Source: Escherichia coli (GTDB lineage Bacteria > Pseudomonadota > Gammaproteobacteria > Enterobacterales > Enterobacteriaceae). From it: a DNA stretch of 64,000 nucleotides. The notes below the pieces were generated by a model. The model had not been told where the DNA came from, ran no database searches, and saw only the letters and a program-made list of their open reading frames with translations. Both the position numbers and the translations under genes were made by a program. Positions 1 through 30,983 of this stretch are shown here, piece by piece; within the stretch, counting starts at the first letter, position 1, and every line of letters starts with the position of its first letter. The stretch lies in assembly GCF_044324875.1 (NCBI RefSeq), contig NZ_CP172185.1; one strand, 5' to 3'.

Positions 1-13
1 GTGACATTGTCGT

Positions 14-1390
14 TCATTGCACTGGCACCTTCAGAGGGATCACCGGCACAAAGCCGGGATGCGTAATGGCATTACGCCGGATAATGTCCGCGTCACGCGC
101 CGCGTTATCAAACCAGGTCGCCGCCAGCACCAGCGCGGGTAAAACCTCATCCGGTGTGCGCTGAATGATCCGCGCAGACTGTTCAAGGCGCATGTTGATA
201 TCCGCATTCAGATCTGCTTTCACCCGGCGCAGCGCCAGAAACAGCGCATCACTGGTTGTACGGGACAACTCCTTATCAATTGTCGTATTCAGTGTGTCGC
301 GAATGTCAGTCAGTTCTTCCCACGTCGGCAGGTCAACCGTGCTTTTCACCGCCGGTGCATTGTTCAGTGCCGGATGCGTGACGGAAGGCCAGCCAGTGCT
401 CTGCGCAGGTGTTGTTGCCTGCCCCATTGCGGCATTCTGCATCACCGCGGAAGTTGTTGGCGCAGGCAATCGTGTGACGGCATACGCCGCTTCGCTGATT
501 GCGGTCGTACGAAGGGTGCTGGCAACCACGTTACGCTGCTGCGTCGCCGTAGCGGTAGTTTTACTGTCCGTTTTCCAGACGCCGCGCGGTTGCAGATCGC
601 TGCCGAGGCTGACACCGGAAAGCGTTTTGATCATGGTGACCAGGTCGCTGGCGTTACCATAAAGGCGTTTCCCGGTACGCCACATTTTCTGCACCTGCTC
701 AACGAAATTTTTGCCTGACGATGGCGGCGGCAGAAGTACCGAGATATCCCCCTGCAACAGCCTGGCGGCATCCGATACGGCAGAATCCACCACTTTCATC
801 GCATCAGAAACATACCCAAGCATTGTGCTGGCATTACCGACGACGTCGTTCTGCACAAAATCTGCCACGCCATCGATACTGAAACCACTGAAACTGTCAC
901 TGATGCAGTCATCCAGTGCAGAACAGGATGACATCAGCGTCTGCGCCGTCGCCGCACCTGATGTGGGGTAAGAGAGTTCTCCCGCTTCGACAAACTTCAG
1001 GTCAAAGCGGACAATACGCCCTTCACTCTTCGATGTGCTGACCCGAACCTCCCCGTCAACACAGACTTTCAGCTCACCGTATGTCGGATGGACAAGCGTG
1101 CCGGGACCGGGTTTATTCAGCGCGTCAATCAGGCGATCGCGCTGGTCAAAGCAGTCATCTCCCACCACATAAGCCGTGATGGACGGGCGAAAAGTGATTT
1201 TCCCCAGGTCTTCGGTATAGGGTTTGTCGCGGTTCGGGTATTCATGTGTTTCCACACGGCGACCGGTTCCCGCACTTTCTTCTTCAACCTTAAACGGCAC
1301 GCCGCGAAATGACGCGTCCTGAAGTCTGTCACGCCAGCCTGAAGACGACGAAAGTAATGAAGGTCGGGTGGGAAATGAGGATAAATCCAT
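14..1390 (-). CDS. Mu N-like DNA circularization protein (tail module)
   Basis: 458-aa ORF, N-terminus WRDRLQDASFRGVPF typical of Mu N family; downstream of tape measure gene. Confidence 0.55.
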   Translation of the reverse strand: MDLSSFPTRPSLLSSSSGWRDRLQDASFRGVPFKVEEESAGTGRRVETHEYPNRDKPYTEDLGKITFRPSITAYVVGDDCFDQRDRLIDALNKPGPGTLVHPTYGELKVCVDGEVRVSTSKSEGRIVRFDLKFVEAGELSYPTSGAATAQTLMSSCSALDDCISDSFSGFSIDGVADFVQNDVVGNASTMLGYVSDAMKVVDSAVSDAARLLQGDISVLLPPPSSGKNFVEQVQKMWRTGKRLYGNASDLVTMIKTLSGVSLGSDLQPRGVWKTDSKTTATATQQRNVVASTLRTTAISEAAYAVTRLPAPTTSAVMQNAAMGQATTPAQSTGWPSVTHPALNNAPAVKSTVDLPTWEELTDIRDTLNTTIDKELSRTTSDALFLALRRVKADLNADINMRLEQSARIIQRTPDEVLPALVLAATWFDNAARDADIIRRNAITHPGFVPVIPLKVPVQ

Positions 1391-1414
1391 AGACTGACCT
1401 CAAAAAGGACTGCA

Positions 1415-3322
1415 TTATCGTGGAAAACGAAAAGGGGAATACCCCACATCGTGCGTGATTTTCATCAGGGGATCGGCTTTGCCCGGTACATCAATTATCT
1501 TCATACCTGGCGGAGCATTCTCGAACGTGACTTTCAGTTCGCTGTGCTGTGTCATGGAAGAAGATGGATTCAACAGCGGAACATTGGGTTTGTACTGGCT
1601 CAGGCTGGCCTGATACTGCTCGTACTCTTTACGATCAAAAAAAGGCGTCCAGTCTGAAGCCAGAAACAGCCCTTTATTATCCAGCCAGTTAACCGTATCT
1701 TCAGGAACAACACTTTCCAGAGTATCTTTAACCGGCTCATACATCAGGGTTCCCAGAAAACCATATCCCCCGGCCTTCCCGATAAAGCCGCGGCCTTTCC
1801 CCATCAATCCCGTTTCTGCCGATACCTTCCCCAGCGTACGCATCTCTCTGGTCACTGCGGTAATGGATTTGGTAACGTCAGCAACCCATTTGGTTGCCAT
1901 AAACAGGGCAATCGCTTTCAGAACAGTTTCCCATCCCCCCATCGCCTGCGCCGTTTCATCCACCACGTGCCAGACTTTTTTTATGACAGGGCCTACGGTT
2001 TCCCAGTTATCAATAATGAGGTAAGCGCCACCAACCAGAAGAGCAATCAGCCCCTTAGCTGGCGTCATATTCATCACACCGCCGAGAACTTTCATAATTC
2101 TGGACAAAGAGCCTGCAGCGGCTCCCACCGTCAGTAAGGCCAGACCGATTTTAGCAATGGTCTTAACGAGCTCCGGGTTTTCACGGACAAACGTTCTCAC
2201 TTCCTCAAGGAGCGGTTTTACCGCTTCAAGACCATCATTAACCTCAGGAAGAAACGTTTCCCCCAGCGTGGAAGAAATGGCATCAAGTTGATTTTGCAGA
2301 AGTAAAAGCTGGTTTTCCGTCGTCGCTGCCCTCGAAGCATATTCCTTCTGCATCGAACTGCCATACTGCTGGGAATCCGCAACCCGCCTGAAGTTGGTAC
2401 GCAACAAATCAAGGTTAGTCAGCAGAGGTGCTATCGCGCCCAGAGACTCTTTCCCGAACAGGGCATTCAGCACAGCGGCCCGTTTTTCTTTAGGCACTTT
2501 AGCCATCGCATCCAGTACAGACAGCATGGTGCCCCGGGCATCTTTCTGCATATCAGCAGCTAATTTCTTCGGATTGATCCGCAGAAAACGCAATGCCTGT
2601 TTCTGCGATTTTGTCGCAGAATTTCCCGCGGTCAGGGAAAGCATGAAGTTCTTGATCCCTGTGGCGGCAATTTCTGACTCCACGCCCATCCCGGCAATGG
2701 TTGCCCCCATTGCCGCAATTTCGCCGGAAGCCACACCTGCAACACCACCTAAAGGACCAATACGCGTAACAATATCGGAGATTTTCTTCGCATTCGCCGG
2801 GCCGGTATTACCAAGGTAGTTGATTTTGTCAGCCAGCCCGGCCACTTCATCCTGCGTCATATTAAACGCAGTACGCCACTGGGCCATCATCTGCCCGGAC
2901 TCTTCAGCCGTTGTATCAAAGGCCACGCCCATCTTCACCGCATCAGTGGCAAACTGCATCAGTTCATCACGTGCAATCCCGGCCTGACCGCCAGCCGCCA
3001 CAATTTCCGCGATCCCGTCTGCAGACATGGGAAGCTCTGTAGACAAAGCGCGTACCTGCTCCGTCATGGCCTTAAATGCATCCGGCGTATCCAGACCGTC
3101 CACCACTTTGCGGACATCAGCCATCTTCGATTCAAGGGTGATGGCTGATTTTACAGGGAGTGCCAGTGCCCCCATTATTGCAGTACCCGCCCCGGCAGCA
3201 CCCAGAGCAAGGCTGGAGACTTCTTTCTGAAATCCCTTAAGCTGACGCTGCATACCTTTAAGCGGGCCGGATAGCCTGTCAACGGCGGTGATGATGGCTT
3301 TCAGCTGAAAATTATCAGCCAT
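1415..3322 (-). CDS. Tail tape measure protein
   Basis: 635-aa ORF, Ala/Gly-rich with hydrophobic central segments, positioned between tail chaperone and Mu N-like gene. Confidence 0.7.
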   Translation of the reverse strand: MADNFQLKAIITAVDRLSGPLKGMQRQLKGFQKEVSSLALGAAGAGTAIMGALALPVKSAITLESKMADVRKVVDGLDTPDAFKAMTEQVRALSTELPMSADGIAEIVAAGGQAGIARDELMQFATDAVKMGVAFDTTAEESGQMMAQWRTAFNMTQDEVAGLADKINYLGNTGPANAKKISDIVTRIGPLGGVAGVASGEIAAMGATIAGMGVESEIAATGIKNFMLSLTAGNSATKSQKQALRFLRINPKKLAADMQKDARGTMLSVLDAMAKVPKEKRAAVLNALFGKESLGAIAPLLTNLDLLRTNFRRVADSQQYGSSMQKEYASRAATTENQLLLLQNQLDAISSTLGETFLPEVNDGLEAVKPLLEEVRTFVRENPELVKTIAKIGLALLTVGAAAGSLSRIMKVLGGVMNMTPAKGLIALLVGGAYLIIDNWETVGPVIKKVWHVVDETAQAMGGWETVLKAIALFMATKWVADVTKSITAVTREMRTLGKVSAETGLMGKGRGFIGKAGGYGFLGTLMYEPVKDTLESVVPEDTVNWLDNKGLFLASDWTPFFDRKEYEQYQASLSQYKPNVPLLNPSSSMTQHSELKVTFENAPPGMKIIDVPGKADPLMKITHDVGYSPFRFPR

Positions 3323-3406
3323 GCTTCATCTCCTCATTTATACGGACGGCCTCTGCCTCCAGATCAGCAAAGTGGGAAATAGCCGTCCGGCGAAGTTCAA
3401 GTGGGT

Positions 3407-3730
3407 TTAATTTCCAGAACCACGCGACATTGTAGAATCGCTTCCTGAGGTCTCTTCCGTCTCCAAGCCGGTAAAAAAACGCATTACAATCATGCCTGCC
3501 TTGAAAATATCCAGCTTCGTCATCTGCGCTGCAGACGAGCGCGGGATCCCGGCCAGAAGCGGGATATATTTCAGCGCCACCTGACTGTCCATTTTCATAC
3601 CACCATCAGGCGAAACAGAGAAAGGGAACCCCAGCGCCTCAATCTCGTCATACGTAGGCTCACGTATTTCCAACACATGCAGTGTTTCTTTGTGGGCGAT
3701 GATCGGTTTTTTAAGTACAAGCTCAATCAC
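3407..3730 (-). CDS. Putative tail assembly chaperone
   Basis: 107-aa ORF between tail tube and tape measure genes; position-based. Confidence 0.35.
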   Translation of the reverse strand: MIELVLKKPIIAHKETLHVLEIREPTYDEIEALGFPFSVSPDGGMKMDSQVALKYIPLLAGIPRSSAAQMTKLDIFKAGMIVMRFFTGLETEETSGSDSTMSRGSGN

Positions 3731-4083
3731 TGGTAATCCCCTTCTTCACCGTGAAATTCAATATCGACCGTGCCTTCTTCGGCATTATGGTTCGCTTCGC
3801 CGTGCAGCCAGGCTGACGACAATACATAGACCTGACCGTTCGCCAGCTCGGCAGTGATGGTCATCTCATCAGACGAGGTGATTTTGCTCACCGGAAAATT
3901 CTTCGGTACCTTGAAGGTCCCTTTGACATAAGGTGCACGGTGAGTTTCCTTGCGGTCCACTGAACCGTCCAGACCGATGATGTCATCATTAACCGTTTTG
4001 TTCATGGGCACCTCAATGCCGCCGGTCAGCGATAGCTGCTGACCGTCAATCTTGAAATAACAGGTTCCCCCGATACGGGCCAT
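3727..4083 (-). CDS. Tail tube protein (Mu M-like)
   Basis: 118-aa ORF immediately downstream of the sheath gene, 1-nt junction. Confidence 0.5.
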   Translation of the reverse strand: MARIGGTCYFKIDGQQLSLTGGIEVPMNKTVNDDIIGLDGSVDRKETHRAPYVKGTFKVPKNFPVSKITSSDEMTITAELANGQVYVLSSAWLHGEANHNAEEGTVDIEFHGEEGDYQ

Positions 4084-5579
4084 TATGCGGACTCCTCTGA
4101 ATACTGAAGACGGAACTGGTTAACCACGGCAAAGACACGCAGCTGGTTAACATAGTCAGGCGGGAACAGCGTGTTCAGGCGATTTGGATCGCTGGCATCA
4201 CGCTCCACAACCAGGTACTGCTTAAACAGTTCGTAGTTTTCCACGATGCCCGCACGCTCGAGCTGACGGTAGGTTGCCAGCAGTTCCCCTTTGATCACCG
4301 CCGGGGTGACAATCGCCTGACCGGGACCAAAGCGGGTACCGTCGCTGGCAAGCTTGTGACGCCCGTACTTACTGGTAATGACGGATTTCAGTTTGCGCAG
4401 TACATACGCACTGGTATGCAGCGTCTCGCTGTCGAGGTAGCTGTTATCCGCAACCCCGTAAGCATTTTCCCTGTACGTGGTGACATCACGCTGAATGCGC
4501 AGCACCCCGCTTTCGACATACGCCGTTGCCACGCCATGAGACAGCAGGGTCTGTTGTTCTGTCATCGTGAACCGTTTCCCCTTCGGCGCAGGCAGCATAC
4601 CCACCAGCTCACCGGTCTGCGTGGGACGTGCCGGATCGTTGCGAATAAACACCGCTGCGCGGGCGGTACGGCTTGCCGCCAGCTCGTCGGCAGGCGTCTG
4701 GGTGTCTTTTTCGTATCCCGCCAGGGTAATGTGCTGCTGGTTAAACTGGTCACCTGCGGTCACCAGTTCTGACAGCGTGCCGATCTTTGCCGTATACACA
4801 TGACCATACAGCTGACGCGCATAGCTCCAGCGACCGCTGGTATCGTTCATCTCGGTCACCAGCGTGTTAACGGAGGCCGTGTCGTTGAACGGCAGGCCGA
4901 TATAATCAAACGGCTCATCCGCCATTGCAGCCACCGCGCCGGTGAGAACCGGAGCGCCCGTTCCGGCGGTACCCGTCGCCACAGCAATCTGTACACCCGC
5001 TGGCAGCACTTCGCCACCACCAAAGCCGTAGTAATTGAGGCTGACAGGAATTTCATTCCCGCAAAGCCCCTTATGACGCGCGGTCAGCGTGACCACGCCT
5101 GCCGAAGATGAGGCCGTAAACGGCAGGGTCGGAACGGCATTGATGGCATCCTGGATACTGCTGGCAATCGTCGTGACGTTATCGCCGTTGGTCACCGGTG
5201 CCTGCACGCGGGTACGTCCCACATAAACATTCACCGTGCCGCTTTCGGTTGCTGCTCCAGTCACCGTCAGCGTAACCGTTGCCGCCGCGCCCGTGGATTC
5301 AGGAACGGCAATCACATACAGCTCACCAAACGGGTCGGTCTGGCGATAAGCCTCGACCATACGCGCCAGCTGACTTCCCGCACCACAAATCTGGCATGCA
5401 TAGTCTGCCGACGGCATCAGCACCAGACTGTTGGCAACAATCTCTGCACCGTTATTGGCATGACCAATCAGCAGCGATGCTCCGCTGTCCTGTGCAGTAT
5501 TCGCAGCCTGGTTATCCATTTCCGCATAAAACAGCGGAACCAGCGTATTCGACGGAATGGTGTTAAAGCTTATCGTCAT
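4083..5579 (-). CDS. Contractile tail sheath protein (Mu L-like)
   Basis: 498-aa ORF, MTISFNTIPSNTLVPLFYAEMDN N-terminus typical of myovirus sheath proteins. Confidence 0.75.
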   Translation of the reverse strand: MTISFNTIPSNTLVPLFYAEMDNQAANTAQDSGASLLIGHANNGAEIVANSLVLMPSADYACQICGAGSQLARMVEAYRQTDPFGELYVIAVPESTGAAATVTLTVTGAATESGTVNVYVGRTRVQAPVTNGDNVTTIASSIQDAINAVPTLPFTASSSAGVVTLTARHKGLCGNEIPVSLNYYGFGGGEVLPAGVQIAVATGTAGTGAPVLTGAVAAMADEPFDYIGLPFNDTASVNTLVTEMNDTSGRWSYARQLYGHVYTAKIGTLSELVTAGDQFNQQHITLAGYEKDTQTPADELAASRTARAAVFIRNDPARPTQTGELVGMLPAPKGKRFTMTEQQTLLSHGVATAYVESGVLRIQRDVTTYRENAYGVADNSYLDSETLHTSAYVLRKLKSVITSKYGRHKLASDGTRFGPGQAIVTPAVIKGELLATYRQLERAGIVENYELFKQYLVVERDASDPNRLNTLFPPDYVNQLRVFAVVNQFRLQYSEESA

Positions 5580-5741
5580 CGGTATTCACCTTTTTATTCA
5601 CGCGCCGGATATCACCCGCTGCTTCACGGCGCAGCCAGTAGTTGTTCTCGTCAACATTTCGCCCTTCGGCGGGCAAAAGGTCGCCGCGGGCAGGGTCAGG
5701 CACTGACCGCCCTTTAACAGGTTTCACAAACATGAGGATCC

Positions 5742-6302
5742 TCAGGAAGGAAGGGTTATTTCGGTGTGATGTTCGATATCGCCGTCAGGCCCGTTACCGG
5801 GATCGAGATAATCAACATCAATCGCCAGCGTTCGCAGTTCATCCAGACTGTTCAGGTCATCCTGCTGGCGGGTATCGTCTTCGGTCAGCTCGCTGATGAC
5901 CGAAAAATCGAACTGATAAATCAGCTCATGACGATTCAGATCCAGCAGCGTGCCGCCGTCATAGGTAATCGGGTTACCGCACGCTTCCGGGTTCCAGCCC
6001 AGCAGAGCCTTAAAGAGCATCTGCCGGACATCGTCCACCACATCATACGAGGCAAACTGACCGCGCTCATCACGCCCGTTACTCAGTATGACAACCACGG
6101 AGAAGCCCTCTTTCAGCTCCTGCCAGTAGTCGGTCTGGCTTTTGTTTTCTCCCGGAGAGTCATCACCCGGTACCACATACGCCGCCGGGAGTCTCAGCTT
6201 TCCGACCTCCGGCAGATTTTTGAACTGTGCCGCGCCTGCCACCCGGTTTTCAAAATACGGGCAGCGGGCACGCAGCGCAGCAATAACAGGCGTCAGTTTC
6301 AT
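5742..6302 (-). CDS. Phage structural protein (head-tail joining or tail completion)
   Basis: 186-aa ORF in head-tail joining block; position-based. Confidence 0.4.
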   Translation of the reverse strand: MKLTPVIAALRARCPYFENRVAGAAQFKNLPEVGKLRLPAAYVVPGDDSPGENKSQTDYWQELKEGFSVVVILSNGRDERGQFASYDVVDDVRQMLFKALLGWNPEACGNPITYDGGTLLDLNRHELIYQFDFSVISELTEDDTRQQDDLNSLDELRTLAIDVDYLDPGNGPDGDIEHHTEITLPS

Positions 6303-6805
6303 CTGTGTCGTCGCTCCGGCTTCAGTGATTTACGCAATTCCCGCGCCAGAAAATAGCGTGTCCAGCTGCGGTTCTTTTCAAGAGTTTCCACCATAAAGTT
6401 ATTACGTGGAGCCAGCCGCCAGCCGCTGCCACCGGATGCACCACGATGATGGCTACGACGACGTTTTGCTCCTCCCCGGACACCAAAAAACAGAAACGCC
6501 GGATAGAAGTCACCAGAGATCATCCGGTTCCCCTTCCCGTTGCGCTGGTTAGGGGCAATGCGTGTCATAAAACCGGCTCGCTTTTTACTGGCTCTCGGCA
6601 CCATGTAACCAATCGAACGAGCCAGACGTCCGGTCTGATAACCGGGATTTTCACCCGGTGCCGACCGCGCACGGCGCATCACCAGCCGACGGGCATTACG
6701 CATATGACGCTGCCCAATCGTGACAAACGCCCGCCGGACACGGGCGCGGTTAAAGCGCATCTCCGCGGGCTGCTGAACATCAACGTGAAAAAAGGGAGTC
6801 GCCAT
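6299..6805 (-). CDS. Phage structural protein, Arg-rich
   Basis: 168-aa basic ORF overlapping neighbours by a few nt in operon arrangement. Confidence 0.35.
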   Translation of the reverse strand: MATPFFHVDVQQPAEMRFNRARVRRAFVTIGQRHMRNARRLVMRRARSAPGENPGYQTGRLARSIGYMVPRASKKRAGFMTRIAPNQRNGKGNRMISGDFYPAFLFFGVRGGAKRRRSHHRGASGGSGWRLAPRNNFMVETLEKNRSWTRYFLARELRKSLKPERRHR

Positions 6806-7190
6806 TGCTGCCTCCGTGACTCTGCGTAAATTCGCCCAGTTCCGTACACTCCAGCAGCAGAAAGCGCCGCGCCCCGTTCAGATCGCGCTGACGTTTCACC
6901 CGGTACACACTGTCACCGCAGACCACCTCATAATCAGCGGTGATCCCCCGGCGGTAGCGAATGGTGATGTAATGGGTGATGGCGTCTCCAGTCTGCGCGG
7001 TTTCCTGCCAGGTGGTGGCACTGGTCTGGATAACCTTCGCCCATGTCCGGAACGTAACCGGGTATTGATGCTCCACGCCAAAGTTATCCGCGGGCATATC
7101 CACCCGCTGGCGGATCAGGACGCGTTTATTCAGTTCACCGGGGTCCGGCAGAATGTAGGTTGCGCTGGTCTGCGCCTGACGAATTTTCAT
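6780..7190 (-). CDS. Head-tail adaptor or head closure protein
   Basis: 136-aa ORF in conserved position after connector gene. Confidence 0.45.
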   Translation of the reverse strand: MKIRQAQTSATYILPDPGELNKRVLIRQRVDMPADNFGVEHQYPVTFRTWAKVIQTSATTWQETAQTGDAITHYITIRYRRGITADYEVVCGDSVYRVKRQRDLNGARRFLLLECTELGEFTQSHGGSNGDSLFSR

Positions 7191-7510
7191 TGCGGAAAGT
7201 ACCTGTACGGGCCGACAAGCCAGCCAAAACTCTGCGGCATGTCGAGTTTCTCCACTTCCGTAACCGACGAGTGGTTTTCGTAAAAATGGCTGATAAGCAT
7301 CAGCATCCCCAGACGAATATCATCCGGCAGGTGCAGCCCGTCCGGATCGCTGTCCGGAATGGTTTCATCCGGTGCATAGAGCTTCCGGTTCAGATACGTT
7401 TCCGTCCGCTTTTGCGCCGCACAGGCCAGCAGTTGCAGATGGCGGTCATCAGCATCGAAATCCTCATCCAGCCGGAGTTGGGCTTTAATCTCTTCCATTG
7501 TCAGAAGCAT
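7187..7510 (-). CDS. Head-tail connector protein (gp6-like)
   Basis: 107-aa acidic ORF directly downstream of capsid gene block. Confidence 0.5.
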   Translation of the reverse strand: MLLTMEEIKAQLRLDEDFDADDRHLQLLACAAQKRTETYLNRKLYAPDETIPDSDPDGLHLPDDIRLGMLMLISHFYENHSSVTEVEKLDMPQSFGWLVGPYRYFPQ

Positions 7511-7512
7511 AC

Positions 7513-7713
7513 TCAGCCCTCTTTACTGGTCGTGGCTTTTTTCTCTTTTGCCGCTTTACTGCTTTTTGTACTGATTCCGCGCTCTGCTAACCCAGCCTGA
7601 AGTGCAATCTCCTGCACCCGGGCAGGAAGCGCCCCGTCGTCATACTCACCGGCCCGAATGACCTCAACACGCATACCGTCCGGTGACCATTTCAGATCTT
7701 GTTTCAGGATCAT
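7513..7713 (-). CDS. Small phage protein, hypothetical
   Basis: 66-aa ORF between capsid and connector genes. Confidence 0.3.
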   Translation of the reverse strand: MILKQDLKWSPDGMRVEVIRAGEYDDGALPARVQEIALQAGLAERGISTKSSKAAKEKKATTSKEG

Positions 7714-7761
7714 GATTCTTCACCCGTCAGAACAGGGGCGCGGTTCCGCGCCCCTGAGTGA

Positions 7762-8967
7762 TTACGCCGCTGCAATCTTCAGCAGTTTGATGGCCTGCGA
7801 ATCGACCAGCATCCCGCCGGTGCGCTTGGTGGTATAAAAACCGACAAACGGTTTATTGGTGTACGGGTCACGCAGAATGCGGGTGCCGATACGGTCAACG
7901 ATGGTGTAACCCCGTTTGAAGTTACCAAATGCAATGGCTTTCGCATCAGCGGCGATATCCGGCATCTGTTCGTTTTCAGCGATACCGTAACCCGCCAGAG
8001 AGGACGGCTGCCCCAGTTCCAGCCCCGGACGCCACAGATAGTTACCCTCGGTGTCTTTCAGCAGACGGATGGCAAACAGGCTGTTGTTGTTCATCATGAA
8101 CTTCGCGCCAGTGCGGTGTGCCTTACGCAGCGTGTAAATCAGTTTGATAATGGCGTCTGCGGTCACCGCCGTCGCTTCGCCGGATACAATATGCTGAAGT
8201 TTGCCGAACGCCCGGACCTTATCGGTTTCATCAGTGGATTCATACGCCAGGAACCCTTTCGGCTTCTTGGTACCATCGCCGGTGGTAAAGGCAATTTCTT
8301 CCTGTTCGGCAAATTCGGTTGCCAGCTCGCTGTTGATCCATGCTTCCACGTTGAAAAAGGCATCATCCAGCATTTTCTGGGTAGCCTGCGGGTTACCGTA
8401 GATTTCCCCCATGAAAGGTTCAATCAGTCCCAGTTTTGAGGTGGCAGTCTGGGAGCGCGCGTCAGTCTCGCCAACCCATCCGGAAGCCGTGCCGCCCAGA
8501 TTCACCAGTTTTTTGTAGTCGGAACCGCCAACGGTGATCACCGTGGCTTCCTGGCGCATCACCACTTCATCTTTCAGCAGGGTAAGAATGTTGCGATCCA
8601 GTGCTTCCGGCACGGCATAGCCGCCGTCTTCATCGGTGCCCACCTGTAATGCCTTGCGCTCCAGATCGCGCAGACCATCTTCACGGCCTTTACGCAGGAA
8701 GCCCACAAACGCTTCTTTATGCTCGGTGGCCAGTTTATTTTGCGCACCACCTGCCGGACGTTTCAGCTCAAGAAGCTCTTTTTCAAGATCGCTTTTGAGG
8801 TTTTCCAGCTCGCTGAGTTTCCCGTTCAGGGTTTCCACCTGCCCGGCAAGTTTGCCTTTTTCCTGCTCAATCGCATCCACGCGCTTGTCGTTCTTTGCTT
8901 TGAAGTCGTCAAACTTCTGCTGCAGCTCCTGCGCGACCTGTTCGACATCTTTAATATCAACCGCCAT
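7762..8967 (-). CDS. Major capsid protein, HK97 family
   Basis: 401-aa ORF with coiled-coil N-terminal delta domain then HK97-fold region; follows prohead protease. Confidence 0.85.
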   Translation of the reverse strand: MAVDIKDVEQVAQELQQKFDDFKAKNDKRVDAIEQEKGKLAGQVETLNGKLSELENLKSDLEKELLELKRPAGGAQNKLATEHKEAFVGFLRKGREDGLRDLERKALQVGTDEDGGYAVPEALDRNILTLLKDEVVMRQEATVITVGGSDYKKLVNLGGTASGWVGETDARSQTATSKLGLIEPFMGEIYGNPQATQKMLDDAFFNVEAWINSELATEFAEQEEIAFTTGDGTKKPKGFLAYESTDETDKVRAFGKLQHIVSGEATAVTADAIIKLIYTLRKAHRTGAKFMMNNNSLFAIRLLKDTEGNYLWRPGLELGQPSSLAGYGIAENEQMPDIAADAKAIAFGNFKRGYTIVDRIGTRILRDPYTNKPFVGFYTTKRTGGMLVDSQAIKLLKIAAA

Positions 8968-8981
8968 CGTATTTCTCCTGA

Positions 8982-10851: not shown

Positions 10852-11033
10852 TATTTACCTCCACCAACAGACAGCTGTGTACGGTCGAGATATCGCGCCA
10901 CCAGCCACGACCAGAACAGGCACAACGCCCCGGCAACAACAAACCCCGCCGGGGGATAAATCAGCCAGGCACCATACGCCAGCAAAAGCGCCCCCAGCAC
11001 GCCCACCAGAGGCGCGAGAATCAGCATGATCAT
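10851..11033 (-). CDS. Small two-helix membrane protein
   Basis: 60-aa ORF with two hydrophobic segments between large terminase and portal. Confidence 0.35.
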
Positions 11034-11044
11034 AATTACCTCAG

Positions 11045-19549: not shown

Positions 19550-19550
19550 C

Positions 19551-23161: not shown

Positions 23162-23509
23162 GACCGACCTCTATTTCCCTGAATTTACGACGAAACTGTT
23201 CGAGCGGACTGAAGCATTCATGCTCATAGCCTTCGCGGAGGTAGATAACCCGTTGTGTTTCCGGCTCCCAACGAATGACTCTGACGGGCACTCCGTAGTG
23301 ATCTTTGAACCAGCGGTTAACTTGTCGCAAAGGACTGTCTCCTTCTGCCGGTTGAAATCACCCACAGCCCACTCTGCAAAGCTGTGGGTTACAATTTCCC
23401 TGTCACCTAGTACATTCACTGCATAGCAATATTCCACCTTCGCTTTTCCACCCGGTACAGGAAGCGCAATCAGTTGCGAGCGACGGTAGTGTGTTGTTAA
23501 ACTGTTCAT
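23151..23509 (-). pseudogene. Small early gene upstream of O, apparently frameshifted (or two overlapping short ORFs)
   Basis: Protein-like N-terminal half in one frame and protein-like C-terminal half (...[23 protein letters not shown]...) in the -1 frame ending at the O start; junction near 23325-23350. Confidence 0.35.
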
Positions 23510-24075
23510 GCGTTAGTTTCTCCACAACCAGAAGCAATCGACGCCACGACGCCCGGAGCTGCACACTCGCGGGCGTCATTACTTTCTGAAATGCAAAAAA
23601 TTTTGTAGACAAGTGCTGCATGCTCCTGCAGCTTCGAAATTGAGAGATACAGCTCGTCGTTAATTGCTGTCTTCTCATGCGGTTCCACTACACCGTCTTC
23701 GATTGCTGAACGAATCTGTTTTGAATAACTGCCGATCTGTTCAATGACTTCCAGCAGACGCTGGTTAATATCGGCGTTGTCCACATCCTCGACGTCAGGA
23801 AGAGACACAAAGACGCCATTTGCAGACTGCGCCACAGCATCAGCAATGAAATGAGTGCCACCAGCACGCTGTAAAACCATTGCCCATCCCAGCGGGAAAA
23901 TCTGATCGCCATCTGCACGAAGGCGGTTGAATAAAGCGTTTTCTGTTACATCGAGCCAGTCAGCCGCTTCAGCGTAACCACCCGGCAACGCCGCGATAGT
24001 TTTTCTGACAGCTTTCACGTACCACTCAGGCTGTTTTTCTATTTTCCAGTGATGCTTACCCACGATTAGCCTCAT
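23506..24075 (-). CDS. Putative CII-like early regulatory protein
   Basis: 189-aa ORF in the cII-equivalent position directly downstream of cro; position-based. Confidence 0.35.
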
Positions 24076-24106: not shown

Positions 24107-24310
24107 CTAATCTTTCGGATAGATATCCGGTCTTAAGTCAGATTTCGTAATTGCACCTGACGTGCATTGCTCAAGTTTTTTAGCCAGCACAAAACTGGCT
24201 TTTTTATAGCCATTGAAAACCAGCCGTAAGTAGCCAGGTGTTGAGCCAACTTTTCCGGCCAACTCGCCCTGCTGTTCTTTGGTTAAAGAGTCCCAATACG
24301 CTTTCATACA
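24107..24310 (-). CDS. Cro-like repressor (YdaS/Cro family HTH)
   Basis: 67-aa product from Met 24310 with C-terminal DLRPDIYP-like motif; the listed longer ORF reads through the operator region. Confidence 0.7.
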   Translation of the reverse strand, partial: CMKAYWDSLTKEQQGELAGKVGSTPGYLRLVFNGYKKASFVLAKKLEQCTSGAITKSDLRPDIYPKD

Positions 24311-24397: not shown

Positions 24398-25072
24398 ATG
24401 AAAACAATCCATGACATCCGGCGGTCTAACGCCAGAAAACTGAGAGATGGTGTTGGCGGGAATTCTTCCTTTGCCACTATGATTGATCGCGAGCCAACCC
24501 AGACCAGCAGGTTTATGGGAGATGGTGCTACTAAAAATATCGGTGACAGCATGGCACGACACATCGAAAAATGTTTCGACCTGCCTGTCGGATGGCTCGA
24601 TCAAGAACACCAGACAACGAACATCACAAAAAAACCTGATGTTTCAATCACTAATAAACAAATCACATTAGTCCCTGTCATATCATGGGTACAGGCCGGA
24701 GCATGGAAAGAAGTTGGATATTCTGAGGTTGATTTGAGCACAGCAGAAACGTATCCCTGCCCTGTACCCTGTGGGGAAATGACTTATATCTTGCGGGTGA
24801 TAGGTGATTCAATGATTGATGAGTACCGCCCGGGAGACATGATTTTTGTCGATCCTGAAGTACCTGCCTGCCACGGTGACGACGTTATTGCATTGATGCA
24901 CGATACAGGTGAAACCACCTTCAAAAGGTTGATAGAAGATGGGACACAGCGTTATCTCAAAGCGTTAAACCCAAACTGGCCTGAGCCTTACATTAAGATC
25001 AACGGTAATTGCTCTATAATTGGAACTGTGATTTTCTCAGGAAAACCAAGAAGATACAAAATCAAAGCCTAA
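24398..25072 (+). CDS. CI-like repressor with HTH and LexA-like S24 peptidase domain
   Basis: 224-aa ORF; N-terminal HTH and C-terminal GDSM...K autocleavage domain. Confidence 0.85.
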   Translation: MKTIHDIRRSNARKLRDGVGGNSSFATMIDREPTQTSRFMGDGATKNIGDSMARHIEKCFDLPVGWLDQEHQTTNITKKPDVSITNKQITLVPVISWVQAGAWKEVGYSEVDLSTAETYPCPVPCGEMTYILRVIGDSMIDEYRPGDMIFVDPEVPACHGDDVIALMHDTGETTFKRLIEDGTQRYLKALNPNWPEPYIKINGNCSIIGTVIFSGKPRRYKIKA

Positions 25073-25306: not shown

Positions 25307-25513
25307 ATGCACAAAACAGAACCAAAAATCGTCGCGCCCGGATACACAAATGAGGAAATTTACGAGTGGATGGCAAAGAAGCTGGCAGCTATAAACCAGC
25401 TTCGTGAAGTGCTGTCTTATCGACAGGAAACAATAGACTCCTTAAAAAAACTGGATCAGGAAATCACGGTTTTATCACAGGATGTTACTTTAGATATTGT
25501 GCAGACAAATTAG
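25307..25513 (+). CDS. Hypothetical 68-aa protein, first gene after pL
   Basis: Strong GAGGAGG ribosome-binding site 6 nt before ATG; no arginine-rich motif. Confidence 0.5.
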   Translation: MHKTEPKIVAPGYTNEEIYEWMAKKLAAINQLREVLSYRQETIDSLKKLDQEITVLSQDVTLDIVQTN

Positions 25514-25919
25514 GATCCCATTCATTTTCGTCAAAATCATCAAAGTGATGAATTTGTGATCTCCAGTCTCGATAATCTAAAAATTTCTGGGCGGTTACGC
25601 TTATTTTATCAAGCGTGAGTTCATCCTGAATTGAAAGAAGAAGTTCATCAAATTTCATCTCATTAATCTGTTTTGGCATCCAGTGATGCTTCATCAGAAT
25701 AAGGTGAACCAGAGCTTTTTTCCCATTCAACTGATTATAGGGAGTGCCGAATTTCTTCCGGTGCTCATGTAAGACAAGGTCCAGAAGAGTAAGTAATGTT
25801 GCCCTTGATTCAACTTTGCTTATTTCGACTGATGACACTACCCCACTGATTTCAATGCCCCGATACTTTCCAACATTTTCACAGTGGGATTTGTACAGCG
25901 TATAGATATTACCGGACAT
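25485..25919 (-). CDS. Hypothetical 144-aa protein antisense to the pL operon
   Basis: AT-rich ORF with AAGGA ribosome-binding site; 3' end overlaps 25307-25513 convergently by 29 nt. Confidence 0.5.
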   Translation of the reverse strand: MSGNIYTLYKSHCENVGKYRGIEISGVVSSVEISKVESRATLLTLLDLVLHEHRKKFGTPYNQLNGKKALVHLILMKHHWMPKQINEMKFDELLLSIQDELTLDKISVTAQKFLDYRDWRSQIHHFDDFDENEWDPNLSAQYLK

Positions 25920-26070
25920 TTCTTTTCCTTTTGCGTTGTTGGGGATAACCAGATTAACCGAATCCTTGTTGTTGGGGAATAACCAGGTCCACCTCGCCTG
26001 ATGTGGCTAAAAGCAGGCACATAACAGCTAAGTATTTTCAACCAGAGAGAATCCTTAGCGTTGTGGTGAA

Positions 26071-26387
26071 TGCGGCTCAGCGCACGCGGGTTAAGGTTGA
26101 GGCTGACAGTCGACCTTCTGTGGATACCCACCCGCCTGGTGTGCAACCTTCGCCAGGCACCGGGAGGCACCCGGCACCACAACTTTATGCTGCGTGTAGT
26201 CTTGGCGGTACCAGCTTTTACCCTTGCTTCCGGCTGGTACCGTCCTTTTTACAAAACAGAGAAGAGCATTACCGGACGACGGGCTCATAACTCAATCCAT
26301 CCGGGCGGCTGCCACCGCAGGTGTTCTTCTCTGTTTTGTGGAGAAACTAATCGGCTTTGCAGGGTCGATATGATGAGGAGCAGCAAA
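26071..26387. other. GC-rich structured noncoding segment (candidate cis-acting RNA or ncRNA)
   Basis: Nested inverted repeats including a 12-bp stem GGCGGTACCAGC/GCTGGTACCGTC (26211-26251); short ORFs in several frames without ribosome-binding sites. Confidence 0.3.
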
Positions 26388-26750
26388 ATGGCTAGCGAAC
26401 GCAGTACTGATGTGCAAGCATTTATCGGGGAGCTGGACGGCGGCGTATTTGAAACCAAAATCGGCGCAGTTCTCAGTGAAGTCGCTTCCGGTGTGATGAA
26501 CACGAAAACCAAAGGTAAGGTCTCACTCAACCTGGAAATCGAACCATTTGATGAAAACCGTGTGAAAATCAAACACAAACTCTCATATGTTCGCCCGACT
26601 AACCGCGGGAAAATTTCCGAAGAAGACACCACCGAAACGCCGATGTATGTCAATCGCGGTGGTCGCCTGACTATTCTGCAGGAAGACCAGGGACAATTAC
26701 TGACTCTTGCCGGTGAACCTGACGGAAAACTCCGCGCAGCAGGTCATTAA
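26388..26750 (+). CDS. Hypothetical early-left protein (CPS-53 YfdP-like)
   Basis: 120-aa product from Met 26388 preceded by GAGGAG; the upstream in-frame extension from 26070 looks noncoding. Confidence 0.5.
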   Translation: MASERSTDVQAFIGELDGGVFETKIGAVLSEVASGVMNTKTKGKVSLNLEIEPFDENRVKIKHKLSYVRPTNRGKISEEDTTETPMYVNRGGRLTILQEDQGQLLTLAGEPDGKLRAAGH

Positions 26751-26815
26751 TATCGTTCTTAATTAACCGATTATTTATCTCATCACTGAATATCTTAATA
26801 TAGTGAGGACTTATT

Positions 26816-27640
26816 ATGTCTCAAAACTTAGACGCAACCGCATTTAATCAAATCCATGCCCTTATTTCTGCTCAGGGTGTTAATGAAATTATCAGTAAGA
26901 TTGGTGCCGATGCTGTGGCATTGCCTGAGAATTTCCGCATTCATGATCTGGAAAAATTTAATTTAAATCGCTTCCGTTTCCGTGGTGCGCTTTCCACTGC
27001 CAGCATCGATGACTTTACCCGTTATTCTAAAGATCTTGCAGATGAAGGCACCCGCTGCTTTATCGATGCTGATAATATGCGTGCCGTCAGTGTGCTTAAC
27101 CTGGGTACTATTGATGAACCAGGTCACGCAGATAACACCGCCACTCTCAAACTGAAAAAGACAGCACCGTTCTCTGCTCTGTTGTCTGTTAATGGCGAGC
27201 GTAACTCCCAGAAATCACTGGCAGAATGGATTGAAAACTGGGCCGACTACCTTGTGGGCTTTGATGCTAATGGTGACGCCATTCAGGCAACCAAAGCGGC
27301 GGCGGCTATCCGTAAAATCACAATTGAAGCGAACCAGACCGCTGATTTTGAAGATAATGACTTCAGCGGCAAACGCTCCCTGATGGAGTCTGTCGAAGCG
27401 AAGACCAAAGACATTATGCCAGTGGCATTTGAATTTAAATGCGTTCCGTTTGAAGGCCTGAAAGAACGTCCATTTAAATTACGCCTCAGCATTATCACTG
27501 GCGATCGTCCTGTACTGGTTCTGCGCATTATTCAGCTGGAAGCGGTGCAGGAAGAAATGGCTAACGAATTTCGTGATCTGCTTGTTGAGAAATTCAAAGA
27601 CAGCAAAGTAGAAACCTTTATTGGTACTTTCACCGCCTGA
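26816..27640 (+). CDS. DUF2303-type protein (YfdQ-like)
   Basis: 274-aa ORF recalled as matching E. coli CPS-53 YfdQ. Confidence 0.6.
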
Positions 27641-27767
27641 TTTCATTACTGCAAATGCCCCTGCGGGGGAATTTATGGAAACGTAATTAACTCAATAATC
27701 GCCGGATGGTGAGGACTTCCTTTTACCAGAATTCAGCGCGGTGCAGCGCATATACGTGGAGAACAAA

Positions 27768-28304
27768 ATGTCATTTATTAAAACTTTTTCCGGGAAGCAT
27801 TTTTATTATGACAAGATAAATCAAGACGACATCGTTATTAACGATATCGCGGTTTCCCTTTCAAATATCTGTCGCTTTGCAGGACATCTTTCACATTTCT
27901 ACAGCGTCGCCCAACATGCGGTGCTTTGCAGCCAACTGGTGCCGCAGGAATTTGCTTTTGAAGCGTTAATGCATGATGCAACAGAAGCGTATTGCCAGGA
28001 CATCCCGGCGCCACTGAAACGCCTTCTTCCTGACTATAAACGGATGGAAGAAAAAATAGACGCCGTAATCCGTGAGAAATACGGGTTACCCCCAGTTATG
28101 AGTACACCCGTGAAATATGCCGATCTCATCATGCTGGCAACTGAACGCCGCGATCTCGGGCTTGATGATGGCTCTTTCTGGCCAGTACTGGAAGGTATCC
28201 CGGCAACAGAGATGTTCAAAGTTATTCCACTGGCACCGGGCCATGCCTACGGGATGTTTATGGAACGCTTCAACGAGTTATCGGAATTACGCAAATGTGC
28301 ATAA
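27768..28304 (+). CDS. HD-domain phosphohydrolase (YfdR-like 5'-deoxynucleotidase)
   Basis: 178-aa product with H..HD metal-binding signature (HAVL...MHDATEAY). Confidence 0.65.
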   Translation: MSFIKTFSGKHFYYDKINQDDIVINDIAVSLSNICRFAGHLSHFYSVAQHAVLCSQLVPQEFAFEALMHDATEAYCQDIPAPLKRLLPDYKRMEEKIDAVIREKYGLPPVMSTPVKYADLIMLATERRDLGLDDGSFWPVLEGIPATEMFKVIPLAPGHAYGMFMERFNELSELRKCA

Positions 28305-29173
28305 CTCATGTAGTTAGTTTTTCTGGCGGGAGAACATCCGCATATCTTGTTCACCTGATGGAAGAACAAAGAAAGGCTGGCAATAACGTCTGCTACATCT
28401 TTATGGATACCGGTTGCGAACATCCGCTGACATACCGCTTTATCCGGGAGGTTGTGAAGTTCTGGGACATACCACTAACTGTGTTACAGGTCGATATAAA
28501 TCCTGAGCTTGGGCAGCCAAATGGTTATACAGAATGGGAGCCAACGGATATTCAGACACGAATGCCGGTGCTTAAACCGTTTATGGACATGGTTAAAAAG
28601 TACGGCACGCCATACATCGGCGGCGCGTTCTGTACTGACAGGCTAAAACTCATCCCTTTCACGAAATACTGCGATAACCATTTCGGGCGAGGTAATTACA
28701 TCACATGGCTGGGTATTCGTGCAGACGAACCCCGTAGGCTGAAACCGAAATCGGGCGTCCGGTATCTTGCCGAGCTGTCAGATTTTGATAAGTCGGATGT
28801 TATCCGGTGGTGGCGAAAACAACCTTTTGATTTGCAAATCCCGGAGCATCTCGGGAACTGTGTTTTCTGCATCAAAAAGTCAACGCAAAAGCTGGGGCTT
28901 GCATGTAAAGACGAACCAGGTCTGATGCGAGTTTTTAATGAGCTGGTTACAGGCAAACACGTCAGGGATGGTCATCGCAGAACAGGTAAAGACATTATGT
29001 ACCGTGGTCACCTGACGCTTGACGGAATTGCCAGAATGTCTGCCAACAGCGACTACAGAAATTTGTATCAGGCGATGGTACAGGCCAGGCGATTCGATAC
29101 CGGCTCGTGTTCAGAGTCATGTGAAATCTGGGGTGATCAATTGGAATTGGAATTCGAAGAGGTAGGGGTATGA
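28295..29173 (+). CDS. PAPS reductase-like PP-loop protein
   Basis: 292-aa ORF with N-terminal SFSGGRTS PP-loop ATP-pyrophosphatase motif. Confidence 0.7.
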   Translation: MCITHVVSFSGGRTSAYLVHLMEEQRKAGNNVCYIFMDTGCEHPLTYRFIREVVKFWDIPLTVLQVDINPELGQPNGYTEWEPTDIQTRMPVLKPFMDMVKKYGTPYIGGAFCTDRLKLIPFTKYCDNHFGRGNYITWLGIRADEPRRLKPKSGVRYLAELSDFDKSDVIRWWRKQPFDLQIPEHLGNCVFCIKKSTQKLGLACKDEPGLMRVFNELVTGKHVRDGHRRTGKDIMYRGHLTLDGIARMSANSDYRNLYQAMVQARRFDTGSCSESCEIWGDQLELEFEEVGV

Positions 29174-29514
29174 CAACCGAAATTAACTACCATGCACTGC
29201 TTGAGCGCGCACGGAATAAAGTGCAGAGCATTGAGTTCGCCTTAACACAGAGTGCATTCGCTGAGATTCGCGCTGAGCTTGAAAATGATTTAGAACTGGC
29301 ACGGATTGCACTGGCATCTCTGGAAGTTGAGCCAGATGAACGCGCAGCCTATGAATTATTTATGGAAAAGCGTTTCGGTAAAACAGTCGATCGTCGGAGA
29401 GCAAAAAACGGCGATAACGAATACATGGCATGGGATATGACTCTCGGTTGGATCATCTGGCAGCAACGAGCTGGTATCCATTTTTCAACAATGTCACAAC
29501 AAGAGGTGAAATAA
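29170..29514 (+). CDS. Hypothetical protein
   Basis: 114-aa ORF overlapping previous stop by 4 nt. Confidence 0.45.
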   Translation: MTTEINYHALLERARNKVQSIEFALTQSAFAEIRAELENDLELARIALASLEVEPDERAAYELFMEKRFGKTVDRRRAKNGDNEYMAWDMTLGWIIWQQRAGIHFSTMSQQEVK

Positions 29515-29628
29515 TAGAGCCATACAGCCTCACACTCGATGAGGCCTGTTCATTGCTCAATGATATCCAGACCTACCATCGCCGCATCAATGCGGCTTTT
29601 TCTTGCGTGTAATTGCGGAGACTTTGCG

Positions 29629-29847
29629 ATGTACTTGACACTTCAGGAGTGGAACGCTCGCCAGCGACGCCCAAGAAGCCTTGAAACAGTTCGTCGATGG
29701 GTGCGCGAATGCAGGATATTCCCTCCTCCGGTTAAGGATGGAAGAGAGTATCTGTTCCACGAATCAGCGGTAAAGGTTGACTTAAATCGACCAGTAACAG
29801 GTAGCCTTTTGAAGAGGATCAGAAATGGGAAGAAGGCGAAGTCATGA
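29629..29847 (+). CDS. xis: Excisionase Xis (lambda)
   Basis: 72-aa product MYLTLQEWNARQRRPRSLETVRRW... matches lambda Xis as recalled. Confidence 0.9.
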   Translation: MYLTLQEWNARQRRPRSLETVRRWVRECRIFPPPVKDGREYLFHESAVKVDLNRPVTGSLLKRIRNGKKAKS

Positions 29848-30895
29848 GCGCCGGGATTTACCCCCTAACCTTTATATAAGAAACAATGGATATTACTGCT
29901 ACAGGGACCCAAGGACGGGTAAAGAGTTCGGATTAGGCAGAGACAGGAGGATAGCAATTACTGAAGCAATACAGGCAAACATTGAGTTATTTTCAGGACA
30001 CAAACACAAGCCTCTGACAGCGAGAATCAACAGTGATAATTCTGTTACGTTACATTCATGGCTTGATCGCTACGAAAAAATCCTCGCCAGCAGAGGAATC
30101 AAGCAGAAGACACTTATAAATTACATGAGCAAAATTAAAGCAATAAGGAGGGGGCTACCTGATGTTCCACTTGAAGACATCACCACAAAAGAAATTGCAG
30201 CAATGCTCAATGGATACATAGACGAGGGCAAGGCGGCGTCAGCCAAGTTAATCAGATCAACACTGAGCGATGCATTCCGAGAGGCAATAGCTGAAGGCCA
30301 TATAACAACAAACCCGGTCGCTGCCACTCGCGCAGCAAAATCAGAGGTAAGGAGATCAAGACTTACGGCTGACGAATACCTGAAAATTTATCAAGCAGCA
30401 GAATCATCACCATGTTGGCTTAGACTTGCAATGGAACTGGCTGTTGTTACCGGGCAGCGAGTTGGTGATTTATGCGAAATGAAGTGGTCTGATATCGTAG
30501 ATGGATATCTTTATGTCGAGCAAAGCAAAACAGGCGTAAAAATTGCCATCCCAACAGCATTGCATGTTGATGCTCTCGGAATATCAATGAAGGAAACACT
30601 TGATAAATGCAAAGAGATTCTTGGCGGAGAAACCATAATTGCATCTACTCGTCGCGAACCGCTTTCATCCGGCACAGTATCAAGGTATTTTATGCGCGCA
30701 CGAAAAGCATCAGGTCTTTCCTTCGAAGGGGATCCGCCTACCTTTCACGAGTTGCGCAGTTTGTCTGCAAGACTCTATGAGAAGCAGATAAGCGATAAGT
30801 TTGCTCAACATCTTCTCGGGCATAAGTCGGACACCATGGCATCACAGTATCGTGATGACAGAGGCAGGGAGTGGGACAAAATTGAAATCAAATAA
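29825..30895 (+). CDS. int: Integrase Int (lambda, tyrosine recombinase)
   Basis: 356-aa product MGRRRSHERRDLPPNLYIRNNGYYCYRDPRTGKEF... matches lambda Int as recalled. Confidence 0.95.
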   Translation: MGRRRSHERRDLPPNLYIRNNGYYCYRDPRTGKEFGLGRDRRIAITEAIQANIELFSGHKHKPLTARINSDNSVTLHSWLDRYEKILASRGIKQKTLINYMSKIKAIRRGLPDVPLEDITTKEIAAMLNGYIDEGKAASAKLIRSTLSDAFREAIAEGHITTNPVAATRAAKSEVRRSRLTADEYLKIYQAAESSPCWLRLAMELAVVTGQRVGDLCEMKWSDIVDGYLYVEQSKTGVKIAIPTALHVDALGISMKETLDKCKEILGGETIIASTRREPLSSGTVSRYFMRARKASGLSFEGDPPTFHELRSLSARLYEKQISDKFAQHLLGHKSDTMASQYRDDRGREWDKIEIK

Positions 30896-30983
30896 TGATT
30901 TTATTTTGACTGATAGTGACCTGTTCGTTGCAACAAATTGATAAGCAATGCTTTTTTATAATGCCAACTTAGTATAAAAAAGC
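30896..30983. other. attL: phage P' arm and 15-bp att core
   Basis: TTAGTATAAAAAAGC at 30969-30983 is the reverse complement of the lambda core GCTTTTTTATACTAA, preceded by lambda P' arm sequence. Confidence 0.85.

Follow-up and report, generated by a model that had tools for sequence, protein, structure and literature searches.

The stretch of DNA investigated in this study, hereafter called the window, comprises 64,000 nucleotides of Escherichia coli contig NZ_CP172185.1 (assembly GCF_044324875.1) and carries at positions 1-30983 a prophage whose orientation is reversed relative to the phage late operon. This region very probably represents the ~31 kb on the attL side of a temperate phage of the SfV-like type, a so-called 'lambdoid myovirus', inserted at the lambda attB between ybhC and ybhB. 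A preliminary description had read it as a mosaic of lambda int, xis and att sequences, an HK97-type head and a Mu-type tail, and each of these elements was found where it had been placed. What this description had overlooked is that the combination is no unusual one-off mosaic but that of a known group, as the SfV-like phages (SfV, SfI, SfII and SfIV) are defined by this very combination of lambda-style regulation, an HK97-type head and a contractile tail of the Mu type. The mosaic itself is not new. SfIV, SfV, SfI and SfII possess contractile tails, as seen by electron microscopy, and HK97-family heads, and they integrate at thrW (PMC3851460), and Bobay et al. have set the 'SfV-like' phages apart as lambdoid Myoviridae with five integration sites in E. 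coli (PMC3603311). The element described here is an ordinary, apparently intact member of this group of E. coli and Shigella temperate phages, and its only distinctive feature is a lambda/HK97-type integration cassette in place of the SfV-type thrW integrase cassette.

The chromosomal junction is defined by a 15-bp att core at 30969-30983 (minus strand), where the lambda core GCTTTTTTATACTAA occurs in exact reverse complement, as TTAGTATAAAAAAGC. This core is the crossover region of attL, and it finds no second match in the entire window even if two mismatches are allowed. On the minus strand the junction reads ...GTTGAAGCCT-GCTTTTTTATACTAA-GTTGGCATTATAAAAAAGCATTGCTTATCAATTTGTTGCAACGAACAGGTCACTATCAGTCAAAATAAAATCATTATTTG, corresponding to the B arm of attB, the core and the P' arm. 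The 73 bp that separate the int stop codon from the core (30896-30968, minus strand) are the P' arm of attP and are identical to lambda 27739-27811, and on the host side the core is followed by the B arm of attB and by ybhC from position 31030. Homology detected by megablast to lambda (98.1%, lambda 27724-29115) and HK97 (99.2%) terminates exactly at 30983. The junction is an attL (B-O-P') on the ybhC/gal side, as had been proposed. Next to it, int (29825-30895, plus strand) encodes a lambda-type tyrosine integrase of 356 amino acids, 353 of which are shared with lambda Int (the differences being A114V, H164P and I248V) and all of which are shared with HK97 Int, and xis (29629-29847, plus strand) encodes an excisionase of 72 residues that is identical to its HK97 counterpart and differs from lambda Xis at one position. 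The integration module is essentially that of lambda, with orthologues of both Int and Xis, the P' arm on the int side of the core and the attB arm on its host side. A protein comparison with SfV did not identify a homologue of the SfV int or xis in the window, and the SfV-type integrase that acts at thrW is a trait of the Shigella members and is not defining for the group.

Within the window, only the xis-int-attP' block of about 1.46 kb is derived from lambda/HK97, with proteins identical to those of HK97 and DNA that is 98% identical to lambda. The joint between this cassette and the SfV/SfIV-type early-left region is located at 29527-29576, where the two homologies overlap, with that to HK97 starting at 29527 and that to the left arm of SfV/SfIV stopping at 29576. 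The overlap contains a sequence common to SfIV-type and HK97-type phages, GCCTCACACTCGATGAGGCCTGT, which looks like the boundary at which an HK97/lambda xis-int-attP cassette displaced one of the SfV type. Of 5,426 complete E. coli genomes, 38 contain an exact copy of a 601-bp probe spanning the joint, and 17 complete genomes hold at least 80% of the window region 8000-32500 at the same ybhC site.

The packaging and head module (7187-13278, minus strand) was assigned by the Pfam families PF05119, PF03354/PF20441, PF04860, PF04586, PF05065 and PF05135. In the direction of transcription it encodes the small terminase subunit TerS (12775-13278, PF05119), the large subunit TerL (11045-12778, PF03354/PF20441), a YmfR-like protein of 60 residues (10851-11033), the portal (9610-10851, PF04860), an S78 prohead protease (8982-9632, PF04586), the major capsid protein (7762-8967, PF05065), a 66-residue protein (7513-7713) and a head-tail connector (7187-7510). 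The module is preceded by the gene of an HNH endonuclease adjoining cos and terS (13395-13745, minus strand; PF01844, 1.6e-15), whose product is 98% identical to SfV orf53 and 38% identical to HK97p62, the HNH protein encoded at the HK97 genome end. Since base 1 of the linear SfV genome aligns to 13336 and its base 37074 to 13337, between the HNH gene and terS, we place cos at 13336/13337. The portal, the S78 protease and a PF05065 capsid protein with an N-terminal delta domain, together with the absence of a separate scaffold gene, characterise the head as a member of the HK97 family. The earlier assignment of an HK97-like head with an HNH endonuclease thus holds at the level of family and architecture but not as a close kinship, since identity to HK97 gp2-gp5 amounts to 25-36% at the amino acid level (25-38% with the HNH protein included). 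The capsid protein did not match PDB chains of HK97 gp5 at E<=1e-3, and the entry 9gyi, a strong match that was considered as HK97 gp5, turned out upon inspection to be a different protein. An inspection of the chainmail residues (K169/N356/E363) relied on a weak alignment, in which K169 is placed opposite an arginine and the C-terminal region is unaligned. The closest heads are those of SfI, SfII and SfIV and of the Salmonella phage ST64B rather than that of SfV, with DNA identities of 97% to SfIV, SfII, SfI and the deposited phage vB_EcoM-720R4 and of 89% to ST64B.

The neck and contractile-tail module (14-7190, minus strand) was identified with Pfam and by phmmer comparison to Mu. It starts with a head closure protein (6780-7190), a neck/tail completion protein (6299-6805) and the tail terminator (5742-6302), which are followed by a DUF2635 protein resembling Mu gp38 (5563-5733; phmmer 3e-13), the sheath (4083-5579; PF04984/PF17482/PF17481), the tube (3727-4083; PF10618, phmmer 9.5e-5 to Mu M), the tail assembly chaperone (3407-3730), the tape measure protein (1415-3322) and a Mu N-like DNA-circularisation protein of 458 residues (14-1390; PF07157, phmmer 1.4e-18). 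The sheath is 36% identical to Mu L (phmmer 3e-84), the best PDB matches of the sheath and the N-like protein are Mu gpL (9khy) and Mu N (9ki1), respectively, and the tail genes are colinear homologues of Mu gp38-gp43. These results bear out the Mu-like character that the preliminary description had ascribed to sheath, tube, tape measure and N-like proteins, and they identify the Mu-like contractile-tail module that characterises the SfV-like group. At the amino acid level, the proteins of the module are 98-99% identical to those of SfV, except for the tape measure protein and the chaperone, which are the alleles of 720R4. The contractile nature of the tail, read here from the genes, is taken from relatives, as the tail module is 97.7% identical at the DNA level to that of SfIV, whose contractile tail measures ~101 nm (PMC3851460). 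Matches to head, terminase or early proteins of Mu were not detected in the window by phmmer and tblastn.

The relationship to the SfV-like phages is also evident at the nucleotide level. Within positions 1-25000 of the window, vB_EcoM-720R4 (ON470603) covers 79% at 97.1% DNA identity, SfV 56% at 95.6%, SfIV 52% at 97.7%, SfII 44% at 97.0% and SfI 44% at 97.1%. Sheath, tube, tail terminator, TerL, TerS and HNH proteins share 97-99% of their amino acids with SfV. Genome order, terminase, HNH gene, neck and tail, lysis genes, most early genes and the Mu-like tail are alike in SfV, SfIV, SfII and SfI, with the 95-98% DNA identity referring to the structural and most early genes, and near-identical relatives of the element share with SfV the location of gtrABC beside attP. 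A segment map shows the usual exchange of modules among members of the group, with a portal-protease-capsid block of the SfI/SfII/SfIV/ST64B type and a tape measure and chaperone block that is the 720R4 allele. The segment from Q through Kiwa and the lysis genes to a 189-residue cargo gene, up to ~14.4 kb, is 96% identical to prophages such as that of NIST0056, a strain in which the adjacent 151-residue cargo gene is absent. The differences from the SfV-like Shigella phages concern the integrase, which targets thrW in these phages but is of the lambda/HK97 type directed to attB (gal-bio) here, two additional cargo genes between Rz and HNH, a NinC-like phosphoadenosine phosphosulfate (PAPS) reductase in the left operon, the tape measure and chaperone allele shared with vB_EcoM-720R4, and E. 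coli as host. SfV in particular has its own type of Q, whereas the Q described here is of the PF06530 type, and it carries the orf47/orf48 methylase cargo between Q and holin where this element carries Kiwa. The best match in the phage database, vB_EcoM-720R4, has the same tape measure allele, head module and replication genes but lacks Kiwa and both the 151- and the 189-residue cargo genes, contains a DNA adenine methylase as cargo between Q and holin, and does not include a lambda int-xis in its record.

The phages that had lent their names to the mosaic are more distant. Int, Xis, the 15-bp core, the P' arm and the host site are shared with lambda and HK97, as is the P arm in relatives (87-91%), but elsewhere the element contains none of their siphovirus tail genes and no lambda head genes, and its immunity is of the SfV type. 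With no matches to lambda head and tail genes or HK97 tail genes and the described identity of 25-36% to the head genes of HK97, it belongs neither to Lambdavirus nor to Byrnievirus. Similarly, the relationship to Mu is confined to the tail, with colinear counterparts of gp38, L, M and N and, in relatives, of gp44-48 and U, whereas tblastn and phmmer did not find transposition, regulatory, head or terminase genes of Mu in the window. The transposase genes A and B and the early genes are absent, as is any DNA similarity to Mu, including a match in the window to the G-segment/Gin region, which excludes membership in Muvirus. A further resemblance concerns e14 and CPS-53, cryptic prophages of E. 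coli K-12, whose gene names (ymfK/L/T/R/Q, stfP, yfdN/P/Q/R, yfdG/H) recur in the RefSeq annotation of relatives; this comparison is one of annotation names and general knowledge. Both are decayed remnants at other sites and, unlike them, the element keeps its full virion gene set.

The regulation of the element is lambdoid, with a CI that is identical to the SfV repressor, Cro-like and CII-like proteins, a Q antiterminator and an S-R-Rz/Rz1 lysis cassette. This layout is reflected in the divergent cI/cro pair, in Q, in the lysis genes and in packaging at cos. The cI repressor (24398-25072, plus strand), annotated as 'LexA family' in a relative, has 224 residues, is of the LexA/UmuD-like S24 peptidase type and shares 100% of its residues with SfV cI. 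Opposite to it, a Cro-like helix-turn-helix protein of the YdaS family with 66 residues (24107-24307, minus strand) is 96% identical to the cro region of SfV, matches PF15943 weakly and is called in sister contigs. The gene of the late antiterminator Q (18189-18551, minus strand; PF06530, E=1.5e-45) is the same as in sister prophages, and the Q of SfV does not match that of the window. The lysis cassette (15100-16424, minus strand) comprises the lambda-family holin S (16098-16424, PF05106), the endolysin R (15618-16094), Rz (15242-15634; DUF2570, 86% identical to SfV) and an embedded Rz1 lipoprotein (about 15100-15357), which is called as LysC/Rz1 in sister contigs. The endolysin, which had been described as lambda-like, shares 97% of its residues with SfV R, compared to 90% with the HK97 endolysin and 89% with lambda R, and its best solved relative is lambda lysozyme (PDB 1am7, E=3e-96). 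It is more exactly an SfV-family R that is itself lambda-R-like. Upstream of the holin by ~150 nucleotides, and directly after the Kiwa insertion, a GC-rich hairpin followed by a T-run is found at 16577-16598 (minus strand), which may act as a tR'-like site at which a Q-dependent late leader transcript is terminated. A consensus scan for promoters and terminators between 13.3 and 18.7 kb did not reveal an excess of sites over shuffled sequence, and Rfam gave no match within the prophage.

The early-right operon (18554-24075, minus strand) is 88-99% identical in its proteins to SfV orf36-45, except for the replication gene. It extends from a cII-like/YmfL gene (23506-24075) through small open reading frames (23151-23509), an O-like replication protein of the SfIV/720R4 type (22220-23161), PerC/YfdN (21729-22223), a frameshifted dam-type N6-adenine methylase (21077-21762), a protein resembling the LexA DNA-binding domain (20754-21080), RusA (20368-20757) and a KilA-N protein (19551-20381) to a DUF968 protein (18554-19549). 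On the other side of cI, the early-left (PL-side) accessory genes (25989-29514, plus strand), with 96-98% amino acid identity to SfV orf30-32, encode a yfdP-like protein (open reading frame 26070-26750), yfdQ/DUF2303 (26816-27640), the HD-type 5'-deoxynucleotidase yfdR (27741-28304), a NinC-like protein with a PAPS-reductase domain (28295-29173; PF01507, 79% identical to lambda NinC) and a 114-residue protein (29170-29514). The NinC-like gene is inserted in the left operon in place of a gene of the SfV/SfIV orf29/orf31 type, and its product shows a weak SspD-like match in PADLOC (1.2e-14). Beside cI, a low-GC stretch contains a gene of 144 codons (25485-25919, minus strand), annotated as 'ECs1072 family' in a relative, with a full-length match to phrog_5286. 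Neither Pfam nor PADLOC matched its product, and the PHROG match is of the unknown-function type. At the corresponding position beside cI, lambda holds exclusion genes such as rexAB.

Since position 1 of the window lies 13 bp past the stop codon of the N-like gene, the genes for baseplate and fibres are not included, nor is the second junction, as had been anticipated for the latter. The missing end can be approximated from relatives. Public assemblies very commonly encode the exact 458-residue N-like protein, and two contigs, CP165150.1 (99.97%) and GL872204.1 (99.96%), match the window from 1 to 11390. Past the position corresponding to the window start, both continue with homologues of Mu gp44-48 and with genes for a glycine-rich fibre and for fibre assembly, followed on the opposite strand by a gtrC-type glucosyltransferase, gtrB and gtrA. 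Next come a P arm, which is 91% identical to that of HK97 and 87% to that of lambda, and the core GCTTTTTTATACTAA, beyond which ybhB and bioA are located. The second core, which the preliminary description had expected within a plausible prophage length, is in these near-identical contigs, rather than in the genome studied here, located 8.4 kb beyond window position 1, adjoining ybhB. The complete genome of strain 300033 shows the same layout, including gtrABC, with ~40.2 kb from core to core. By analogy to these relatives, the whole element would span ~39.4 kb and would probably be serotype-converting.

The interpretation as an apparently intact phage has to be weighed against several points. 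A dam-type methylase gene is split into two open reading frames by a 1-bp deletion, which shortens a run of five C to four (the G4 run at plus-strand positions 21468-21471) where the catalytic NPPY motif is encoded. This deletion recurs in an independent assembly, which is 99.78% identical and colinear over window positions 3877-24335, and it is thus real and inherited and not a sequencing error. It is the single lesion found and indicates some decay, in a gene that is not known to be essential. Moreover, the completeness of this copy is taken from relatives, with attR and the baseplate, fibre and gtr genes outside the window, its inducibility is presumed from the biology of lambda, HK97 and SfV, and the joint in the left arm is not spanned by any of 50,697 deposited phage genomes. 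These observations weigh against our interpretation, and the first of them, together with the ~8 kb on the attR side that are not open to inspection in the window and occasional pseudogenes in relatives (in strain 300033, for example, stfP is truncated and small genes are frameshifted), would suit a defective, cryptic SfV-like prophage that is stably resident, no longer yields infectious particles and is kept for its cargo of Kiwa, a nuclease-like gene and gtr. We consider such a degenerate state unlikely, as the visible virion, packaging, lysis, regulatory and recombination genes are all of full length and 95-100% identical to their homologues in SfV, SfIV and vB_EcoM-720R4, as Int and Xis are undamaged, like the core and the P' arm, and as the affected methylase is an accessory gene. 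Between TerL and the N-like gene, both included, 16 virion and packaging reading frames agree in length with those of sister contigs, TerS and HNH are complete and 98% identical to their SfV counterparts over 100% of their length, and the structural region is colinear with vB_EcoM-720R4 in a single high-scoring segment pair of 12.3 kb.

The ancestry of the int-xis block, which is 99% identical to HK97 compared to the 95-98% relating the remainder to the SfV family, could in principle also reflect a composite of two elements, with a lambda/HK97-like remnant (int-xis-attL) located beside an independently integrated SfV-like phage. Such an arrangement is highly improbable, since the window contains one att core and neither an SfV-type integrase nor a second attachment site, since the joint is a clean crossover in a short shared sequence that is kept unchanged in the 38 complete genomes, and since the element is bounded in relatives by a single attL and a single attR at a distance of ~39-40 kb, with gtrABC next to a lambda-type P arm in the same way as in SfV. 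Although prophage repeats are a common cause of misassembly, nothing specific points to an artificial joining of contigs from different prophages, and with the same colinear architecture found in independent assemblies (99-99.97% identity) and in 17-38 complete genomes, its probability appears negligible. A single SfV-like prophage with an exchanged integration cassette thus remains the preferred explanation.

Besides its phage functions, the element carries cargo. The anti-phage system Kiwa (16756-18167, plus strand) resides as a low-GC (0.34) moron between Q and the holin, on the strand opposite to both. Its genes kwaA (16756-17277, 173 residues), for a membrane protein, and kwaB (17283-18167, 294 residues) are on the same strand, 5 bp apart, and match the PADLOC models KwaA (1.9e-83) and KwaB (2.3e-150) over their full length, with KwaB also matching Pfam PF16162 (DUF4868), and together they are predicted to encode a complete Kiwa system, a defence complex embedded in the membrane (PMC11785009). 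Sister prophages have this slot occupied by two unknown genes, a DUF6650 gene, or a 151-codon gene together with a gene for a transglycosylase-domain protein (PF00912), and these differing contents identify it as a variable cargo site, in which new systems could be sought.

Two further unannotated cargo genes, both of low GC content, lie between the spanin genes and HNH. The first (14509-15078, plus strand) encodes a protein of 189 residues with a predicted PD-(D/E)xK restriction-endonuclease fold. Its family is rare, with 42 cluster representatives among 1.84 billion, and contains invariant K/E...D...ExK residues. In its predicted fold the protein most resembles the restriction endonucleases SwaI, BglI and EcoRV. 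An adjacent or partner methylase of this gene was not found, and the genomic contexts of distant homologues were uninformative. The second (13877-14332, minus strand; phrog_6169) encodes a protein of 151 residues with a hydrophobic N-terminal segment that, as judged by eye from the sequence, resembles a transmembrane helix. It has only six cluster matches, from E. coli, Enterobacter and Citrobacter, and its homologues are always located between the spanin and terS genes of enterobacterial prophages. Neither the 151-aa nor the 189/209-aa reading frame matched Pfam or PADLOC, and their PHROG matches are confined to families of unknown function. An obligate pairing of the two was considered and rejected, since they co-occur in E. 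coli sister prophages, yet each is also found without the other. That both might be new prophage-encoded anti-phage or superinfection-exclusion genes is a tentative and rather doubtful proposal, for which the 189-residue protein is the stronger candidate; provided that it is active, this protein would act on its own as a PD-(D/E)xK nuclease against incoming phage DNA.

The remainder of the window, from 31 to 64 kb, is ordinary chromosome that contains ybhC-ybhJ...modABC/EF, galETKM, gpmA, aroG, zitB, pnuC and nadA and, further along, a Lys/Val tRNA cluster, cpoB-pal-tolBARQ, ybgC and cydX/B. Between ybhC and cydB the gene order follows that of other E. coli genomes, to which this part is 99.2% identical. 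The tRNA cluster (56354-58316, minus strand) is the usual one of seven genes with two RtT elements, and a cpoB/ybgF thermometer is also located in this chromosomal part.

From the established biology of lambda, HK97 and SfV, a life cycle can be proposed for the element. Entry into the chromosome would proceed by Int-catalysed exchange inside the 15-bp core, and the lysogenic state would be maintained by silencing through the SfV-type CI. As this repressor is a LexA-like autopeptidase, induction should depend on the SOS response. Following SOS-induced cleavage of CI, Int and Xis would excise the prophage by recombining attL with attR, and replication would be succeeded by Q-dependent expression of the late genes. 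For packaging, cos would be cut by the terminase with its HNH partner, a mode of cleavage described for HK97. A protease-matured HK97-type head, formed without a scaffold gene, would be joined to the Mu-type contractile tail, and particles would be released by holin, endolysin and spanin. The resident prophage would meanwhile express its cargo, consisting of Kiwa, the nuclease-like protein and the protein with a predicted membrane helix, with the gtrABC genes for O-antigen glucosylation, present in near-identical relatives, as a probable addition.

Collectively, the element is a largely routine example of modular phage evolution. At the same time, it provides a clean, sequence-resolved case of integration-cassette swapping, with a shared boundary of roughly 25-50 bp, by which a myovirus that probably converts the O-antigen has been retargeted from thrW to the lambda site. 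For its host, this implies that the lambda attB of the lysogen is occupied and, in light of the identical cI, which predicts homo-immunity with SfV, that the lysogen should be immune to phages of SfV immunity, whereas Kiwa and possibly other defence genes on the prophage would affect its susceptibility to phages more generally.

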